Virus genome (UHGV): UHGV-0097031
Direction: 5' to 3' (one strand)
DNA from: a virus
Length of the DNA: 10,543 nt
Each line of letters starts with the position of its first letter. Position 1 is the stretch's first letter. This document shows positions 4,508 to 10,543 of this stretch, piece after piece. The position numbers and the translations under genes were made by a program. The notes beneath the pieces are model-generated. The model was not told where the DNA came from. It worked only from the letters and a program-made list of their open reading frames with translations, and made no database searches.

Positions 4508-5545
4508 TTACCAGAGCTTCGCGGCGTACTGCGTTTGGGGGAATGTGTATCCGTAACGTTCTTCGATTGCTTTGCCGTATTTTTTACGAGCTTCATTCAG
4601 TTTTATGCCGGTCAGGTCGTCTCCAGAGGCCATCATTACGTCTAACAATTCCAGATCCATTTTATCCAGCCTTGCCATTGCTTCACGTGATGTACGTATC
4701 TTACGCTCAATGATATGGCGAATAGCCGGATCGGCATCCTCCAGCATCTTAGCGGATTTCTGCTTAAGGCTTTCATTGCGAATATCGATGTTCCTTAAGA
4801 TGTACGACTTCGCAACGTAGCTTGGCTGGTGTTTTTCCAGGTCACGAACACGATATAAGTTAAAATCGCCGAGAAGGCTGCAAGGTACCGATTCGACGCC
4901 AGAATAAATTGTAATGCTCCGGCGCTCACCAACATTATTGACAACGGGGATCGTTGTCTTCGGTAGTCTTGCGAAAACCAATGCGCCATGTGCGCCAACT
5001 CTAAAGCGAGAAAGGGCATTGCTGCCTTCGATGTTTGTTGTCAGCACAACATCTGTATATGCCTCTTTACGCGCCCGGTAGATCTCGCCTTCAGGCTCAG
5101 CTTCAAAGAAGCGCTGTTCTTCTTCAAGAGCACCTACGATTTGAGAAAAAACCCTATTTTTCAGGCTTTTCTTTATGATTTTGTCGTATTTTTTGAGCAA
5201 TTGTTCACGTGTAAATGTACGTGTTGTTGTAGCGCTTTGCACAACAACATGCGTGCTTTGATTGGTGTCCTCAATGATGAATGGGATCGGAGAATATACA
5301 GACTCAACAATGTTCGACGCTTTGCCGTCGGCATCGCGGCACATGTCAACGAAGGCTTTCCATTCAGCAAGACATTTTTCAGCTTCTTCTAATATGTTTT
5401 GGTCATGCGTTAATGCAACATGGCGGAATTCCTCGCCAGCATAACTGGTATCATGGAAAACAGAGTTTGCGACCACCAGCTCTTTCCACCGTTCAGCGGT
5501 TTGCAGGAACCGTTTGTACTCTTTCTCGATCGACTTCTTACTCAT
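4508..5545 (-). CDS. Hypothetical 345-aa protein in the immunity-region position (between pacB and lox-cre); candidate immunity repressor or accessory gene
   Basis: Longest ORF in this interval; AGGA 5 nt upstream of its ATG (minus strand); own AT-rich upstream region with paired operator-like inverted repeats; convergent with pacB and divergent from cre, as in the P1 immC region. I could not recognise any conserved domain by eye. Confidence 0.7.
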   Translation of the reverse strand: MSKKSIEKEYKRFLQTAERWKELVVANSVFHDTSYAGEEFRHVALTHDQNILEEAEKCLAEWKAFVDMCRDADGKASNIVESVYSPIPFIIEDTNQSTHVVVQSATTTRTFTREQLLKKYDKIIKKSLKNRVFSQIVGALEEEQRFFEAEPEGEIYRARKEAYTDVVLTTNIEGSNALSRFRVGAHGALVFARLPKTTIPVVNNVGERRSITIYSGVESVPCSLLGDFNLYRVRDLEKHQPSYVAKSYILRNIDIRNESLKQKSAKMLEDADPAIRHIIERKIRTSREAMARLDKMDLELLDVMMASGDDLTGIKLNEARKKYGKAIEERYGYTFPQTQYAAKLW

Positions 5546-5562
5546 TATTCCTACTCGATTTA

Positions 5563-5662
5563 GTTTTCTAACATAAAATTACTATGACAAATTTATGTCG
5601 AATAACAGAGTGAGTAAAGGATCGAACTGTGATTTTTTGTCATCAATTTTAGAAAACCAACT
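5563..5662. repeat. Pair of ~28-30 bp imperfect inverted repeats (candidate operators) in the promoter region of the 4508-5545 gene
   Basis: Left arm (plus, 5563-5591) GTTTTCTAACATAAAATTACTATGACAAA; right arm read on the minus strand (5636-5658) GGTTTTCTAAAATTGATGACAAA. Blocks GTTTTCTAA, AAAATT and ATGACAAA are identical, with two small indels; the arms flank a ~44-bp centre. Confidence 0.45.
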
Positions 5663-5754: not shown

Positions 5755-5788
5755 ATAACTTTAAATAATTGGCATTATTTAAAGTTAG
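5755..5788. other. lox-like recombination site (13-bp inverted arms, 8-bp spacer)
   Basis: ATAACTTTAAATA - ATTGGCAT - TATTTAAAGTTAG; the arms are inverted repeats of each other at 12 of 13 positions, and the outer ATAACTT is identical to the outer 7 bp of the loxP arms (loxP: ATAACTTCGTATA). Lies 152 bp upstream of the Cre-family gene. Confidence 0.65.
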
Positions 5789-5796
5789 GCTATAAT
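5769..5796 (+). promoter_or_regulatory. Candidate sigma70 promoter reading toward cre, overlapping the lox spacer and right arm
   Basis: -35 TTGGCA (5769-5774), 16-bp spacer, -10 TATAAT (5791-5796); a TGATCA Dam-type hexamer at 5807-5812 lies just downstream. Confidence 0.4.
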
Positions 5797-5939: not shown

Positions 5940-6968
5940 ATGAGTGAATTAATTATCTCTGGCAGCTCCGGTGGTTTTCTGCGCAACATTGGCAAAGAGT
6001 ACCAGGAGGCCGCAGAAAACTTTATGCGGTTCATGAATGACCAGGGGGCTTACGCGCCGAATACTTTGCGCGATCTCCGGTTAGTGTTTCACTCCTGGGC
6101 GAGATGGTGTCACGCTCGCCAGCTCGCCTGGTTCCCGATCTCACCAGAGATGGCCCGCGAGTATTTTCTTCAGCTGCATGATGCTGATCTGGCTTCGACC
6201 ACCATTGATAAGCACTACGCCATGCTTAACATGCTGCTTTCGCATTGTGGCCTTCCGCCACTTTCGGATGATAAAAGTGTTTCTCTGGCTATGCGGCGCA
6301 TCCGGCGTGAAGCGGCAACTGAAAAAGGCGAACGAACAGGCCAGGCTATACCGCTGCGGTGGGACGATCTGAAACTGCTCGACGTCCTGTTGTCCAGGTC
6401 AGAACGGCTGGTGGACCTGCGCAACCGGGCTTTTCTCTTTGTTGCATACAATACGCTGATGCGTATGTCGGAAATCTCGCGTATTCGTGTAGGAGATCTG
6501 GATCAAACAGGTGACACTGTCACGCTACATATTTCACACACGAAGACAATAACGACCGCCGCCGGGCTTGATAAGGTGCTTTCCCGTCGCACTACCGCTG
6601 TGCTGAATGACTGGCTGGATGTTTCCGGGCTTCGCGAACATCCTGACGCAGTGCTGTTCCCGCCGATACACCGTAGCAATAAGGCCAGGATCACGACAAC
6701 GCCCCTTACTGCACCTGCAATGGAGAAAATATTCAGCGACGCCTGGGTGTTGCTGAATAAAAGAGATGCTACGCCAAACAAAGGAAGATACCGGACGTGG
6801 ACCGGGCATAGTGCACGCGTCGGGGCCGCTATTGATATGGCTGAAAAGCAGGTGTCTATGGTGGAGATCATGCAGGAAGGAACCTGGAAGAAACCGGAAA
6901 CACTTATGCGGTATCTTCGCCGTGGCGGCGTGTCTGTGGGGGCTAATAGCCGCCTGATGGATTCGTAA
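5940..6968 (+). CDS. cre: Cre-family tyrosine site-specific recombinase
   Basis: 342-aa ORF that aligns by eye along its whole length with P1 Cre (343 aa): SWARWC / SWAAWC, WFP, LNML, SVSLAMRRIRRE / AVSLVMRRIRKE, AYNTLMRMSEISRIRV / AYNTLLRIAEIARIRV, HTKT / RTKT, WTGHSARVGAAIDMA / WSGHSARVGAARDMA, EIMQEGTW / EIMQAGGW, MRYLR / MNYIR. All catalytic positions (Arg, Lys, His-x-x-Arg, Trp, Tyr) are conserved. Confidence 0.9.
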   Translation: MSELIISGSSGGFLRNIGKEYQEAAENFMRFMNDQGAYAPNTLRDLRLVFHSWARWCHARQLAWFPISPEMAREYFLQLHDADLASTTIDKHYAMLNMLLSHCGLPPLSDDKSVSLAMRRIRREAATEKGERTGQAIPLRWDDLKLLDVLLSRSERLVDLRNRAFLFVAYNTLMRMSEISRIRVGDLDQTGDTVTLHISHTKTITTAAGLDKVLSRRTTAVLNDWLDVSGLREHPDAVLFPPIHRSNKARITTTPLTAPAMEKIFSDAWVLLNKRDATPNKGRYRTWTGHSARVGAAIDMAEKQVSMVEIMQEGTWKKPETLMRYLRRGGVSVGANSRLMDS

Positions 6969-6971
6969 ATT

Positions 6972-6987
6972 AAATTTCTAACACATC
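6972..6987 (+). promoter_or_regulatory. Candidate operator (AAATTTCTAACACATC) between cre and the downstream accessory operon
   Basis: Same TTTCTAACA core as the motifs at 1151-1164 and 5563-5580; followed by a short inverted TTAGA (6991-6995); sits 4 nt after the cre stop and ~55 nt before the TTG start at 7042. Confidence 0.3.
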
Positions 6988-7041
6988 TTTTTAGATTAAC
7001 GCCTTTGCTGTAAAGTACCCTCGCCTATTTAGGAGGGTGCT

Positions 7042-7386
7042 TTGCAGAGTCAAATCACGGAATCAAGACGCTTCAAGGTGGATGGTTACACCGTAACCTT
7101 CGCCGCTGGTGTTAAGAACAGTCATGCTGTCGTTGTGTTCGGCATCATGACCGGGCTTGAGGCCGTCCCTGTGTTTACCCTCGAAAAAAACTGGCGAAAT
7201 CTGGAGGAAGCAGAAAGCTACGTCCGGAAAGTAACCATCATTGCCGCCGAAAAACTCCTGGCCCACTATCAGGAAAATTATCGCACTATGGTCGAGAAGA
7301 TTAATCTCGCTTTCACTCGCCCCACTACCGGCTTTATTGCACCGGATACTAATGCCGGTCGATATCCTGCAAGGGGGCGTCGGTGA
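7042..7386 (+). CDS. Hypothetical protein (TTG start)
   Basis: 114-aa ORF starting at TTG 7042, preceded by a strong AGGAGG (7031-7036) at 5-nt spacing; the first in-frame ATG would remove ~35 residues. No recognisable motifs. Confidence 0.5.
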   Translation: MQSQITESRRFKVDGYTVTFAAGVKNSHAVVVFGIMTGLEAVPVFTLEKNWRNLEEAESYVRKVTIIAAEKLLAHYQENYRTMVEKINLAFTRPTTGFIAPDTNAGRYPARGRR

Positions 7387-7859
7387 AAACTTATTACCCA
7401 TCTCTGAATTGTTACCCGTCTTCCTATCCAGAATTATCCGGGAAGCTGTTAGCTCTATTAGCTAAAGCACCTACGGAATGGTTTAAGCCAGTCGTTATCA
7501 ATCCACACTTCCTGGGTTACGGATCTGTTCGCACTCGTAACGAACTCAAAAACCTACTGGCGCATGGATTCATTCGACACCGTGCCGGGAAAGGCTATCA
7601 GTTAGCGATTGCGCCAGAAGAGGCCGTGCGGCTATTCGCATATCGTGACAGCCAGACAAAAACTCGGGTAATAGCTCAAATACTTCATAACGGCAGCACC
7701 TATGCCCGCCAGTTTGGCGGCGACACGTCGCAGTTCTTGCGGGCGGTGCGATCGCTGGAGGAGCAAGGAGTTATTGAAAGTTCCTGTCTTCCTGTTCCTA
7801 CCGTTCCACATATCAAACGTCGGGTTTACACCTTCACGCAGAGAGCTAAAAAACAATGA
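7383..7859 (+). CDS. Hypothetical protein, possibly winged-helix DNA-binding (GTG start)
   Basis: 158-aa ORF; GTG start overlaps the upstream stop (GTGA, 7383-7386) with AAGGGGG 5 nt upstream. The segment LRAVRSLEEQGVIES...KRRVYTFTQRA resembles the recognition-helix/wing pattern of winged-helix regulators (weak, by eye). Confidence 0.5.
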   Translation: MKTYYPSLNCYPSSYPELSGKLLALLAKAPTEWFKPVVINPHFLGYGSVRTRNELKNLLAHGFIRHRAGKGYQLAIAPEEAVRLFAYRDSQTKTRVIAQILHNGSTYARQFGGDTSQFLRAVRSLEEQGVIESSCLPVPTVPHIKRRVYTFTQRAKKQ

Positions 7860-8350
7860 TTTACGTAAAAGTGAAACGCCTACATCCGGCAGCAAAACTT
7901 CCAGCTTATGCCACCTCCGGATCGGCGGCGATGGATTTTGAGGCTGTTGAAATAAAACCATGCGTCGATAGCAATGGTGCAATTTCCTCAAGCTGGTGGG
8001 TGTATACCGGACTGGCTATGGAGATCCCGCCCGGCTGGTGTCTGAAACTCTATCCGCGATCAGGATTGGGCTGCAAAAAACATACTCGCCTGGCTAACTG
8101 CGTAGGAATTATCGACTCCGATTATCGCGGCGAAATCATGGCAAAACTGATTACTGATCCCGGCGGGGAAGGCGTTTGTCTCAAGCCTGGAATGGCTGTC
8201 ATGCAAGGAATTTTTGAGCGTGTTGAACAAGTCTCACTAGTCGAGGTTGAGGAACTCAACGAAACGGAGCGTGGTGCTGGTGGCTTTGGTAGCACATCGG
8301 AAGGCCACTTTGAAATTAAGCGTTCACCGCTTCAGTACGAAAAGTTATAA
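7856..8350 (+). CDS. dut: dUTP diphosphatase (trimeric dUTPase family)
   Basis: 164-aa ORF with the conserved dUTPase motifs in order: YATSGSAAMDF (motif I, variant of AGxDL), PRSGLG (II), GIIDSDYRGEI (III), AVMQGIF (IV), ERGAGGFGSTS (V). Alignable by eye with E. coli Dut; ~16-aa C-terminal extension. Start overlaps upstream stop (ATGA, 7856-7859). Confidence 0.9.
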   Translation: MIYVKVKRLHPAAKLPAYATSGSAAMDFEAVEIKPCVDSNGAISSSWWVYTGLAMEIPPGWCLKLYPRSGLGCKKHTRLANCVGIIDSDYRGEIMAKLITDPGGEGVCLKPGMAVMQGIFERVEQVSLVEVEELNETERGAGGFGSTSEGHFEIKRSPLQYEKL

Positions 8351-8364
8351 GCAGAGAAAAGACT

Positions 8365-9042
8365 ATGAATAACAAGGCAACGAAAGAGCTTTTTAAGCTC
8401 CTTCCCAAATACAAAGCTCACAAAAACGTTAGTGCATCGAAAATCAAAAATGTTGTTATTTTCGGAGTAACTGATACCCCACTTTGGGGCAGCATCGAAC
8501 TCGTTGAACCTAAAGGGGCAACAGTTTGTGTTGACGCAATGTTTTTACAAAAACACCGACCAAAAACTGGCGGGTATCTGATCGTTTATGAAAACGGTTA
8601 TCTGTTCTATGCCCCGGAGAAACCATTTGAGGAACGCTATGGCCTGGTTAACGACGCCTCCAAAAATGGAACCACGGTCATCATTACGGATGACAACGGC
8701 GCGATGATTAATCTTACCGGGAGCGTAACTATTTCTGCTGGTGGCATCACCACCCAGCAAGAAGAAATCGACCTTGAAGCAGCCGACTTTTCTGACGCGC
8801 TGATGTGGCTGAAGGATGGCAAGAAAGTTGCTCGACGCGGGTGGAACGGCGAAAACCAATTCTGCTGGCTGGTTCCTGAAGGACAGTACCCGGCACGAAT
8901 GGAAGCCATTAAGGGATATTTTCCCGGCGACCTCGTTCCGTATGGTGCTTATTTCGCCTTAAAAAATGCACAAGGTGTAGTTGTTCCGTGGGTGCCTTCA
9001 GTTGGCGACCTGCTGGCCTGTGACTGGTTTGTTGTGGAGTGA
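8365..9042 (+). CDS. Two-part protein: unknown N-terminal region (~140 aa) fused to a C-terminal DUF2829 (Tad2-family) domain
   Basis: 225-aa ORF. C-terminal ~85 aa (DFSDALMWLKDGKKVARRGWNGENQFCWLVPEG...PYGAYFALKNAQGVVVPWVPSVGDLLACDWFVVE) matches the DUF2829 pattern I recall (F-x-x-A-L-x-x-L-K-x-G-K-K-V-x-R-x-G-W-N-G ... P-W-x-x-S-x-x-D-L-L-A-x-D-W). N-terminal part unrecognised. Confidence 0.7.
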   Translation: MNNKATKELFKLLPKYKAHKNVSASKIKNVVIFGVTDTPLWGSIELVEPKGATVCVDAMFLQKHRPKTGGYLIVYENGYLFYAPEKPFEERYGLVNDASKNGTTVIITDDNGAMINLTGSVTISAGGITTQQEEIDLEAADFSDALMWLKDGKKVARRGWNGENQFCWLVPEGQYPARMEAIKGYFPGDLVPYGAYFALKNAQGVVVPWVPSVGDLLACDWFVVE

Positions 9043-9048
9043 TTTGAC

Positions 9049-9816
9049 ATGGAAAGCACTAAAACAATTCAATACCGCTTGCGTAATGGCCTGCTGGTGG
9101 CTGTTAACGCCGACATGTCACTGCCGTTTGACACGATTGAACGCACTATCATGACGTATCTCGGCTTTAATGAAGAGCTGAATGAAGAGCATGGCGTAGC
9201 TATATGGAGTGATGCAGACAGCGGCGTTCGTCGTTACATCACCGCCAGGGGCAAAGACTACTCTCTGGAAGAACTGTTTGCCCTTGCGCAGTCTTTCGAA
9301 TGTGTAGCATTAGACCTGTTTAATGATCCTGCTATAGCGCAACGACTTATACGCGAGCTTGGGCTATCCGTTACACCAATTATCTTTAAAAATGGCAGCC
9401 TGACTGGCACATGGCGCGTAGAACGCATCTCAAACTACCTTCCATATAACCGACAGTTAAATGGAGTAATCTCCGGCGTTAATCAGCCCGTAGCGTGTGA
9501 AAATGTAAACCTAGTTGTCGCTGTTTTGGCAACCGCATGTCGTGTTATCGGTTTGGCTAAACAGGCATTTATTCATTTCCCAAATGGTGCAGAAGGTAGC
9601 GCAGAGATTATCGCGTGTGATTTCGAATTTACCTGGATGCTACGCGAATATCTGGACCAAACAGTATTCCGTGCCGAAGAACTGGATATGTATATCACGT
9701 CAACGATTCCAGACGATGTGCGAGCTGAAGCAATCGCTACAGCCAGGGCGAAATGCCGTGCGGCGATTGCAGAACAGGCCAAAGAAGAAGTTAAGGAAGT
9801 GGCAGATGGCGACTAA
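9049..9816 (+). CDS. Hypothetical protein, translationally coupled to the downstream terminase-like paralog
   Basis: 255-aa ORF; its last 11 nt overlap the start of the next gene (ATG 9806, stop 9814-9816). No recognisable motifs; Ala-rich helical C-terminus. Confidence 0.6.
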   Translation: MESTKTIQYRLRNGLLVAVNADMSLPFDTIERTIMTYLGFNEELNEEHGVAIWSDADSGVRRYITARGKDYSLEELFALAQSFECVALDLFNDPAIAQRLIRELGLSVTPIIFKNGSLTGTWRVERISNYLPYNRQLNGVISGVNQPVACENVNLVVAVLATACRVIGLAKQAFIHFPNGAEGSAEIIACDFEFTWMLREYLDQTVFRAEELDMYITSTIPDDVRAEAIATARAKCRAAIAEQAKEEVKEVADGD

Positions 9817-10543
9817 GAGCAATATTTATAAAGATCCGCGCTGGCTGTCGCTGGTGGAGAAATATAAAGACAATTGGGTACTGGCAGCAAAAGAATTGTT
9901 TGATATTGATTTAAGCCACCAGCAACAACAAATTGTTGAAGCTATACAGCCCAATAATGCAAAAGCTACTGTCACCACTCCGTATGGGATCGGACGACCG
10001 CAAGTGCTTGCTGTTATTAGTACCCTTTATACGATTATGTATCCTGATTCCCGGACAGTAATTGTTTATCCAAAATCAAATGTTTGCAAAAGAGGAATTG
10101 TTGCATATGTGTGGCAATGTTGGGAGGCATTGCTGAAAAAACAACCTTTTATCATTGAGTATTTTAAGGTCGGTGATAGCGGTCTGATGTTCAATGAATT
10201 TTGGGGAATGTGCTTTTGTAACTACCGCCTTAACTATGAAGATAGCATTGCAGGTCACTACGCCGACCATCTTTTATTCATTATTGTGGATTCCGCACAT
10301 ATCAGCGATCGGGCATACAGCATTGTGTGGGCAAGCATGACTAGTGGTGATTCACGCATATTGCTCACTTCAATTCCGTCACCAGAGGAAATAGGCTTTT
10401 TTTATGATTCACATCATGGACGTGCTTTAGCTGAAGATAATCCGAGTGGTGTATATAAAGCCATTAAGCTGAGTGCGGAGGATTCACCATTTATTACCCA
10501 AGAATATCTTGATCATTTTGCCGAAAGGTATGGCGGGCGAAAT
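9806..10543 (+). CDS. Terminase large subunit (PacB) paralog with degenerate Walker A and B motifs; 3' end beyond window
   Basis: Partial ORF (246 codons, runs off the window end). Colinear with PacB 2993-4480: DPRW, SHQQQQI, YPDSRTVIV / FPDARVIIV, HLLFIIVDSAHISD / HLLLILDEASGISD, FYDSHH, DNP, SAEDSPFIT / SEESPFVT, ERYGGR / EYGGR. The P-loop position reads TTPYGIGRPQ instead of TSGHGTGKSS (Lys to Arg, Ser to Pro), and Walker B is VDSA instead of LDEAS (Glu lost). Confidence 0.75.
   Translation, partial: MATKSNIYKDPRWLSLVEKYKDNWVLAAKELFDIDLSHQQQQIVEAIQPNNAKATVTTPYGIGRPQVLAVISTLYTIMYPDSRTVIVYPKSNVCKRGIVAYVWQCWEALLKKQPFIIEYFKVGDSGLMFNEFWGMCFCNYRLNYEDSIAGHYADHLLFIIVDSAHISDRAYSIVWASMTSGDSRILLTSIPSPEEIGFFYDSHHGRALAEDNPSGVYKAIKLSAEDSPFITQEYLDHFAERYGGRN

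Follow-up and report, generated by a model that had tools for sequence, protein, structure and literature searches.

The six genes that follow the Dre recombinase gene in a stretch of DNA from the UHGV virus genome UHGV-0097031 (10,543 nt, referred to here as the window; the six genes lie at positions 7042–10543) probably form an operon of the D6 group, in which a lineage-conserved frame of a c8-like gene, orf116 and isaA holds a variable dUTPase/Tad2 slot and is optionally followed by the gene of a dead PacB paralog, and which would be expressed early under the control of the C1 repressor. Gene identities, synteny, allele variation and the enrichment and placement of a sequence motif carry this reading. 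Phage D6 is a relative of P1 with a plasmid prophage lifestyle. The stretch 7042–10543 is 100% identical to the Escherichia coli plasmid pTB423 (NZ_CP034790), and D6 matches it over 7042–9789 with ∼98% nucleotide identity. The block is already on record, in the D6 pac-c1 fragment AY753669 and then in the D6 genome; neither its gene content and order nor the occurrence of Tad2 in it is new.

All six genes lie on the plus strand. They are the c8-like gene (7042–7386, 114 aa, TTG start), orf116 (7383–7859, 158 aa), dut, which encodes a trimeric-type dUTPase (7856–8350, 164 aa), a Tad2-family fusion gene (8365–9042, 225 aa), a homolog of isaA (9049–9816, 255 aa) and the 5′ two-thirds of the PacB paralog gene (9806–10543, 246 of 364 codons), which is cut by the window end. 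The first five carry the D6 labels orf117, orf116, dUTPase (orf115), DUF2829 protein (orf114) and IsaA-like (orf113). An earlier, sequence-only reading of this DNA had described the block as a tightly coupled operon, and its junctions proved exact in both the open reading frame listing and the sequence: the frames overlap in GTGA at 7383, in ATGA at 7856 and by 11 nt at 9806, gaps of 14 and 6 nt precede 8365 and 9049, respectively, and the last reading frame leaves the window. Profile and sequence matches likewise bore out the content that it had listed, namely two unknowns, a dUTPase, a DUF2829/Tad2-like fusion, a 255-aa protein and a terminase-like protein, which is the PacB paralog.

The sequence AGGAGG sits 5 nt upstream of the TTG codon at 7042, and this start and its Shine-Dalgarno sequence are invariant across eight diverged elements, in a spacer that is otherwise only ∼65% identical. 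The PGAP annotation of the identical plasmid record contains the same six coding sequences. The ratios of nonsynonymous to synonymous substitution (dN/dS) against one diverged relative were 0.20, 0.06, 0.10, 0.44, 0.10 and 0.34 for the six genes in order, values that describe one pair of elements with mosaic sequences. Because dN/dS thus falls between 0.06 and 0.44, all six are real genes under purifying selection.

Conserved frame and variable slot

We mapped the window proteins onto 36 IMG/VR loci with a gene for a Dre relative (55–100% identity) and onto three additional contigs from Raoultella and Enterobacter. The order dre, c8-like gene, orf116, slot, isaA was found in 36 of 36 IMG/VR loci and in all three added contigs. 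Variation was confined to two positions, the slot between orf116 and isaA and the 3′ end after isaA. Five states of the slot were observed: dut with the Tad2 fusion, in most elements including the window; dut only, in L032, L033 and the Raoultella element; a gene for an N6/N4 DNA methylase with Tad2 and a 169-aa open reading frame, in the Enterobacter elements, where the methylase gene takes the place of dut; Tad2 with a 228-aa open reading frame, in L036; and an empty slot, in L038 and L039. Overall, dut was present in 33 and the Tad2 fusion in 32 of the 36 IMG/VR loci, and the latter count agrees with the published presence of Tad2 in 93% of D6-group phage-plasmids, compared with 56% in the P1 group (10.1101/2025.09.12.675607).

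At the 3′ end, the PacB paralog was present in 17 of the 36 IMG/VR loci and missing from 19. It overlaps isaA by 11 nt in 13 of the 17, and in the other four a 64%-identical allele begins after a gap of 25–55 nt. Convergent pdcA/doc/phd/humD genes come next, 3′ of the block. The phd-doc pair is missing from pTB423 and from five paralog-bearing loci (L010, L011, L024, L031 and L034) and present in the remaining eleven paralog-bearing loci and in 16 of the 19 without the paralog; L036, L038 and L039 gave no doc/phd match. Because phd-doc occurs in eleven loci together with the paralog, the two are not strictly exclusive. In the Raoultella ornithinolytica plasmid contig L044 (6997–12744), genes for ArsR-like, ArsD, ArsA, ArsC and ArsB proteins lie with other genes directly downstream of isaA; therefore, the 3′ end of the operon also accepts host-benefit cargo, here an inserted arsenic-resistance cluster.

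The same comparison bears on the earlier proposal that the entire stretch 7042–10543 is a swapped-in counter-defence or host-takeover cassette that replaced the c8-ref-mat-res/mod region of P1 and that all six genes serve this purpose. The content is indeed unlike that of the P1 post-cre region, since ref, mat and res/mod are missing here. The arrangement that the earlier reading gave for P1 is roughly right: ref, mat, res and mod follow cre there, together with c8, but cra lies upstream of cre in the P1 record. The cassette proposal also gains from the presence of Tad2, from the orphan-type DNA methylase in the Enterobacter slot and from the PacB paralog, which comes and goes between close relatives. 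Against it, the first gene is a homolog of P1 c8 at the P1 position, the 255-aa protein is P1 IsaA, and the c8-like gene, orf116 and isaA were found in all the Dre-type elements examined, including those whose Dre is only 55% identical. Profiles for defence and anti-defence functions match Tad2 alone. Moreover, ref and mat are present elsewhere in the D6 genome. Because of this, and because frame genes are shared with P1, the difference from P1 is, to judge from gene content, mostly a rearrangement around a conserved frame together with a small variable slot. We consider replacement of the whole block very unlikely. What holds of a variable region is that the middle and the 3′ end differ among relatives, as accessory or counter-defence loci do, while dre, the c8-like gene, orf116 and isaA stay constant. 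The sequence-only reading had also weighed a gene set that is universal in related elements and has structural or replication roles; the frame is conserved across the relatives, but no such role is known for it.

In the P1-like lineage, a Tad2-isaA-(paralog) module sits after ssb. The order is ssb, Tad2 fusion, isaA in SJ46 and, in MH422554, ssb, isaA and then a 52%-identical PacB paralog that overlaps by 8 nt, and P1 itself (NC_005856) has no Tad2 gene. The first ∼59 residues of the annotated P1 IsaA (L003, 21569–21745) match the leader of the SJ46 Tad2 fusion (L040, 4854–5020). Because of this match, P1 seems to have lost its Tad2 gene through a deletion that joined the leader to isaA, and the start codons of both annotations are doubtful.

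We then considered whether the six genes might be mere neighbors, brought together by compaction, with unrelated roles, possibly separate promoters and no function at the level of an operon. Tight spacing as a special feature of the block was dropped, as the D6 genome is packed equally throughout: 57 of its 94 same-strand junctions (61%) are shorter than 15 nt, with a median gap of 7 nt, and four to seven tight junctions in a row are seen at several places. The independent movement of modules, exemplified by Tad2-isaA-(paralog) after ssb in P1-like phages, and the dispensability of dut or Tad2 also speak for mere adjacency. However, the six genes share one strand, overlap by 4 and 11 nt and have Shine-Dalgarno-like sequences for downstream genes inside the preceding genes; a consensus and terminator scan found no promoter-like or terminator-like site within the block; and the order is kept at 55–70% Dre identity. 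Adjacency without shared function is accordingly an explanation to which we give little credence, and an operon remains the reading that we prefer.

The first gene of the frame was assigned to the C8 family through a shared profile: its product matches phrog_1968 with E = 4e-48 and P1 C8 matches the same PHROG with 6e-53, while pairwise BLAST between the two proteins was not significant (E = 0.06). Like c8 in P1, the gene comes immediately after that of the recombinase, and it was present in 36 of 36 loci. A structure database search found no solved relative of the protein. The P1 record annotates C8 as “establishment of lysogeny, putative.” The orf116 protein matches phrog_6669, and its homologs form only nine protein clusters, all from ∼90-kb elements; a remote homolog occurs in the Dre elements that have diverged furthest. 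Two tandem repeats of helix, helix and β-hairpin, resembling a helix-turn-helix with a wing, are seen by eye in orf116. In searches against PDB and Pfam, its best matches were the EutK C-terminal helix-turn-helix domain (E = 0.25) and, for one member, PadR (E = 0.13), neither of them significant, so that the winged helix suspected in the sequence-only reading is weakly suggested at most. The dUTPase exceeded the cut-offs of NF001862 (121.5 bits, cut-off 103) and TIGR00576 (119 bits, cut-off 102.6), matched PF00692 with 54 bits and contains the motifs PRSG, GIIDSDYRGE and RGAGGFGST in its translation; by these sequence features it is of the standard trimeric type.

Candidate C1 operator between dre and the c8-like gene

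A 14-bp candidate operator of the D6-type C1 repressor, TTAAATTTCTAACA, lies on the plus strand at 6970–6983 and starts 2 nt after the dre stop codon. Sites were searched with the pattern TTNNNTTTCTAA(C/N)A; the motif can also be written TTRRWTTTCTAACA, and its core is TTTCTAACA. A 27.5-kb stretch of pTB423 contains 10 matches, compared with 2.2 expected, and none of 100 shuffles reached 10. In the D6 genome (L042 and L043), of which at least 85% is coding, 16 of the 17 matches nevertheless fall between genes; the sites are found at c1, lpa, repL, ref (both sides), pmgS, pdcB, hrdC/gene 5, simB and orf52. Near-identical copies lie just upstream of c1, at 5560–5573 and 5646–5660 of the window. 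The C1 operators annotated in the P1 record include Oref ahead of ref, Omat, which overlaps the ref end, and Ossb at ssb.

At the junction of dre and the c8-like gene, the motif was found in 31 of the 33 IMG/VR loci in which c1 is at least 70% identical, as well as in pTB423 and D6. The locus L006, whose stretch reads as N at this place, is also without an exact match. The motif is missing where c1 is only 35–42% identical and from P1-like loci. Because the motif is enriched, intergenic, placed at positions equivalent to those in P1 and co-varies with c1, 6970–6983 is very probably an operator of the D6-type C1 repressor. We predict that the operon is repressed by C1 in the prophage and expressed early, because the motif is enriched where P1 has its C1 operators. 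A putative promoter follows on the plus strand at 6988–7016 (TTTTTA at 6988–6993, a 17-nt spacer and TAAAGT at 7011–7016, preceded by TG). Its −10-like element, TGTAAAGT/TGTAAATT, is kept in the spacer between dre and the c8-like gene of eight diverged elements, with TGT and one A invariant.

The second explanation that has to be weighed is that the block is expressed in the lysogen, co-transcribed with dre from a promoter that overlaps rox, and serves the lysogen or the upkeep of the plasmid. In this case, phages of the P1/D6 type might be kept from superinfection by the dead PacB paralog together with IsaA, for instance, and Tad2 could shield the resident element from signaling immunity. A strong promoter overlapping rox (5769–5796: TTGGCA, 16 nt, TATAAT) matches the consensus at 11 of 12 positions and points toward dre, and a scan found no terminator-like site, such as a hairpin, between dre and 7042. 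Because this promoter is strong and no terminator lies behind it, read-through from dre in the lysogen is an alternative to C1-controlled expression. As known from P1 Cre, dimer resolution depends on the activity of such a recombinase in the lysogen, which favors such transcription of dre. The 3′ neighbors phd-doc are maintenance genes, and anti-defence genes have been suggested to stabilize phage-plasmids in their hosts (10.1101/2025.09.12.675607). However, the conserved operator-like site stands exactly between dre and the next gene, which fits a device that separates dre from downstream expression. In addition, ssb, the gene in front of the Tad2-isaA-(paralog) module of P1-like phages, is controlled by the C1 operator Ossb according to the P1 annotation, and the Tad2 proteins studied so far work for the infecting phage. 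Taken together, we regard expression for the benefit of the lysogen as rather unlikely and early, C1-controlled expression as the better explanation.

The rox site itself has the structure TAACTTTAAATAAT-TGGC-ATTATTTAAAGTTA (5756–5787) and is overlapped by the sigma-70 promoter. Because of this overlap, binding of the recombinase at rox could affect transcription of dre. In the annotated records, dre occupies 5940–6968 and is followed by the six genes of the operon; c1 lies on the opposite strand at 4508–5545, pacA and pacB precede it, and an lpa-like activator gene at 1240–1632 comes before these.

The Tad2 fusion, IsaA and the PacB paralog

The fourth gene of the block encodes an N-terminal domain with a putative OB-fold (approximately residues 10–95), possibly akin to that of phage L Dec, a β-rich linker and a Tad2/DUF2829 domain (residues 137–225; nt 8773–9039). 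The latter matched PF11195 over residues 141–224 with 80 bits (cut-off 25) and the solved ModTad2 structures 9EIB (E = 5e-20) and 8V3E (E = 7e-20); HgmTad2/AcrIIA7 and SPO1 Gp34.65 matched as well. It is 45% identical to ModTad2 over ∼88 residues with one gap, and the alignment includes the extended stretch after strand β2. This stretch forms a second ligand pocket in ModTad2 and HgmTad2. ModTad2 is a sponge for the type II Thoeris signal His-ADPR and for the Pycsar signals cUMP and cCMP (10.1101/2024.01.03.573942; 10.1101/2025.08.24.671296). The sequence-only reading had spoken of signal-sequestering content, and on this point the Pfam match and the solved relatives bear it out: the sponge domain of the Tad2 family is genuine.

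At a 90% identity threshold, the homologs of the Tad2 fusion fall into considerably more than a hundred clusters, most of them from ∼90-kb contigs from E. coli, Salmonella and Shigella. The alleles across the loci comprise at least three types of N-domain and two types of linker and differ chiefly in the stretch after strand β2, which exists in three versions, PEGQYPARMEAIKGYFPGDLV (in the window), LAGSVNLHDIQV and PDKHGASRLTPIKHAINGELEINFDSPLA, occurring in mixed combinations. In protein sequence, SJ46 has exactly the Tad2 domain found here (100% identity), whereas the N-domains are only ∼55% identical; because the domain is identical in spite of different N-domains, the comparison points to an exchange of Tad2 between the P1 and D6 lineages. 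No other gene of the block reaches the dN/dS of the fusion gene (0.44), and by its pattern of variation the fusion gene behaves like an arms-race gene. One locus carries a frameshift in it.

Deletion variants were seen at the dut-Tad2 junction. One of them is a dUTPase-Tad2 fusion (PF00692 and PF11195; protein P0070, 241 aa) from ∼88-kb E. coli plasmids, and in the D6 form (L002, 2594–3034) residues 21–99 of the N-domain are deleted in frame. A second Tad2-like gene lies upstream in the window at 164–739 on the plus strand, two genes upstream of the lpa-like activator gene; its product (191 aa, orf6 in D6, phrog_7362) matches PF11195 over residues 103–190 with E = 1e-9, and its identity across the Dre loci ranges from 43% to 100%. 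With the fusion in the slot, there are therefore two different Tad2-domain fusion genes per element.

The IsaA homolog is 48% identical to P1 IsaA over its full length (E = 3e-89; phrog_2326). It belongs to a very small family (32 representatives in 1.84 billion proteins), and a first homolog search gave 14 relatives; a Pfam scan of these 14 members found nothing. An AlphaFold model of IsaA was of moderate quality (pLDDT 73), its fold comparison gave no convincing match, and a BFVD search with the model returned the P1 homolog only. The idea that IsaA is a nuclease was unsupported and was rejected.

The PacB paralog (residues 7–259) is 37% identical to the PacB of the window (residues 10–264) over 258 residues and matched phrog_2 with E = 9e-9; in pTB423, its full length is 364 aa. 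The Walker A sequence GHGTGKS of PacB has become PYGIGRP in the window and PTGIGHK and PHGIGET in other paralog alleles, and Walker B LDEAS has become IVDSA, VMDAA and VINSA. All three alleles (100%, 64% and 51–52% identity) have thus lost the lysine of Walker A and the acidic pair of Walker B. The nuclease domain is missing; the last ∼100 residues do not align with PacB and are conserved within the paralog family. Judged by these residues, the paralog is catalytically dead. It always lies directly after isaA, in the D6 lineage and in some P1-like phages alike. The three alleles lie at 9806–10543 of the window and L001:14765–15859, at L020:5374–6474 and at L041:5995–7089. The pseudo-ATPase part evolves fast (dN 0.41), and the private C-terminal ∼100 residues are nearly invariant (dN 0.012); because of this contrast, the gene suggests recombination within it and a conserved binding partner of its product. 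P1 IsaB as a remnant of the paralog was rejected, as tblastn found only pacB in P1 and IsaB belongs to a different PHROG.

We also considered that IsaA and the dead PacB paralog form a functional two-gene module in which the paralog acts as a decoy or antagonist, so that together with the OB-Tad2 fusion the 3′ half of the block would be an arms-race locus. As a decoy, the paralog could blunt host sensors of the terminase fold, for example, Avs-type NLR proteins; as an antagonist, it could poison the packaging complex of competing P1/D6-type phages. A literature search on inactive terminase paralogs gave nothing relevant. Such a module appears unlikely. The pseudo-terminase is the sole element here that might prove new.

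Proposed mechanism and comparison with known systems

The course of events that we infer, comprising operator function, expression timing, co-transcription, ligand binding and the activity of each protein, would be as follows. In the plasmid-prophage state, C1 would bind the operator next to the dre stop codon and either keep the block's own weak promoter off or block read-through from dre. On infection or induction, C1 control would be lifted, and the six packed genes would be transcribed together and early. The Tad2 domain, presumably as a tetramer, would then sequester signals made by TIR proteins or cyclases, so that Thoeris and Pycsar effectors stay inactive; the ligands of the closest studied Tad2 relative are His-ADPR, cADPR isomers, cUMP and cCMP. 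The dUTPase would hold dUTP low during replication of phage DNA, and the c8-like and orf116 proteins would probably be regulators of the lysis-lysogeny decision.

Several observations weigh against this interpretation. With respect to control, two of the 33 loci with a closely related c1 (L012 and L023) are without the exact motif at the junction of dre and the c8-like gene, the putative promoter is weak (its −35 hexamer matches at three of six positions and falls below the consensus scan), and read-through from dre offers another route to expression. The dN/dS values have the narrow basis given above. With respect to counter-defence, PADLOC, which was run with defence models only, matched none of eight window proteins, and scans with Pfam, PHROG, PADLOC and NCBIfam recognized Tad2 only and not two adjacent anti-defence genes. 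A phage dUTPase need not serve defence. Furthermore, the known Tad2 proteins are standalone proteins of ∼90 residues, and the ∼135-residue N-terminal extension of the 225-aa fusion could bear on the formation of a tetramer.

The proposal of a counter-defence cassette thus holds for the Tad2 sponge and for the variable slot that carries it, but the other five genes contain no recognized anti-defence domain; for host takeover, no specific support was found. The proposal is thus supported in part, in the more limited form of one real counter-defence gene in a small variable slot within an otherwise conserved and probably regulatory early operon. If this is true, D6-type phage-plasmids, which are common in E. 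coli, Shigella and Salmonella, switch on a sponge and a nucleotide-sanitizing enzyme as a repressor-controlled early operon, in which the sponge gene is exchanged and remodeled between the P1 and D6 lineages; this would help explain their establishment in hosts with Thoeris or Pycsar. The three versions of the pocket-forming stretch and the several N-domains also provide a natural allele series for the ligand specificity of Tad2. Since the genes, their order and Tad2 are already recorded, current concepts are unchanged. The frame-and-slot architecture, the mosaic alleles, the operator at the dre stop codon and the dead PacB paralog after isaA may be undescribed details, and they are incremental. 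Related sequence is present in 216 of 5,426 complete E. coli genomes, nearly always plasmid-borne.

Phage D6 (NC_050154/MF356679; AY753669, partial, with orf2, orf3 and dut) has the same genes in the same order directly after dre. It differs from the window in its Tad2 fusion, which the in-frame deletion shortens to 146 aa, and in its 3′ end, where pdcA-doc-phd follows isaA in place of the PacB paralog. P1 shares the C8-family gene right after the recombinase gene, IsaA and the use of C1 operators on early genes. In contrast to the arrangement here, ref, mat and res/mod come after c8 in P1, the operator sequence differs, and the place of the Tad2-isaA module in its lineage is after ssb, not after cre.

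Compared with PacB and other TerL proteins, the paralog keeps the N-terminal ATPase framework, with FYDSHH, NPxG, ESP and LGxFP invariant, whereas the catalytic Walker residues are gone and an unrelated conserved stretch of ∼100 residues replaces the nuclease domain. The Tad2 sponges (ModTad2/MoTad2, SPO1 Tad2 and HgmTad2/AcrIIA7) share their domain with the fusion along its whole length. In the fusion, unlike in these sponges, the domain is the C-terminal third of the protein, behind the putative OB-fold and a linker, and sequestration is predicted. Finally, the block resembles the anti-defence clusters of phages and mobile elements in having a fixed locus between conserved genes, a changing content that includes a signal sponge, an orphan-type DNA methylase in the slot of relatives and, as predicted here, early expression. 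It is unlike these clusters in that the slot holds only one to three genes, that a single recognized anti-defence gene is present and that the flanks belong to the conserved backbone.

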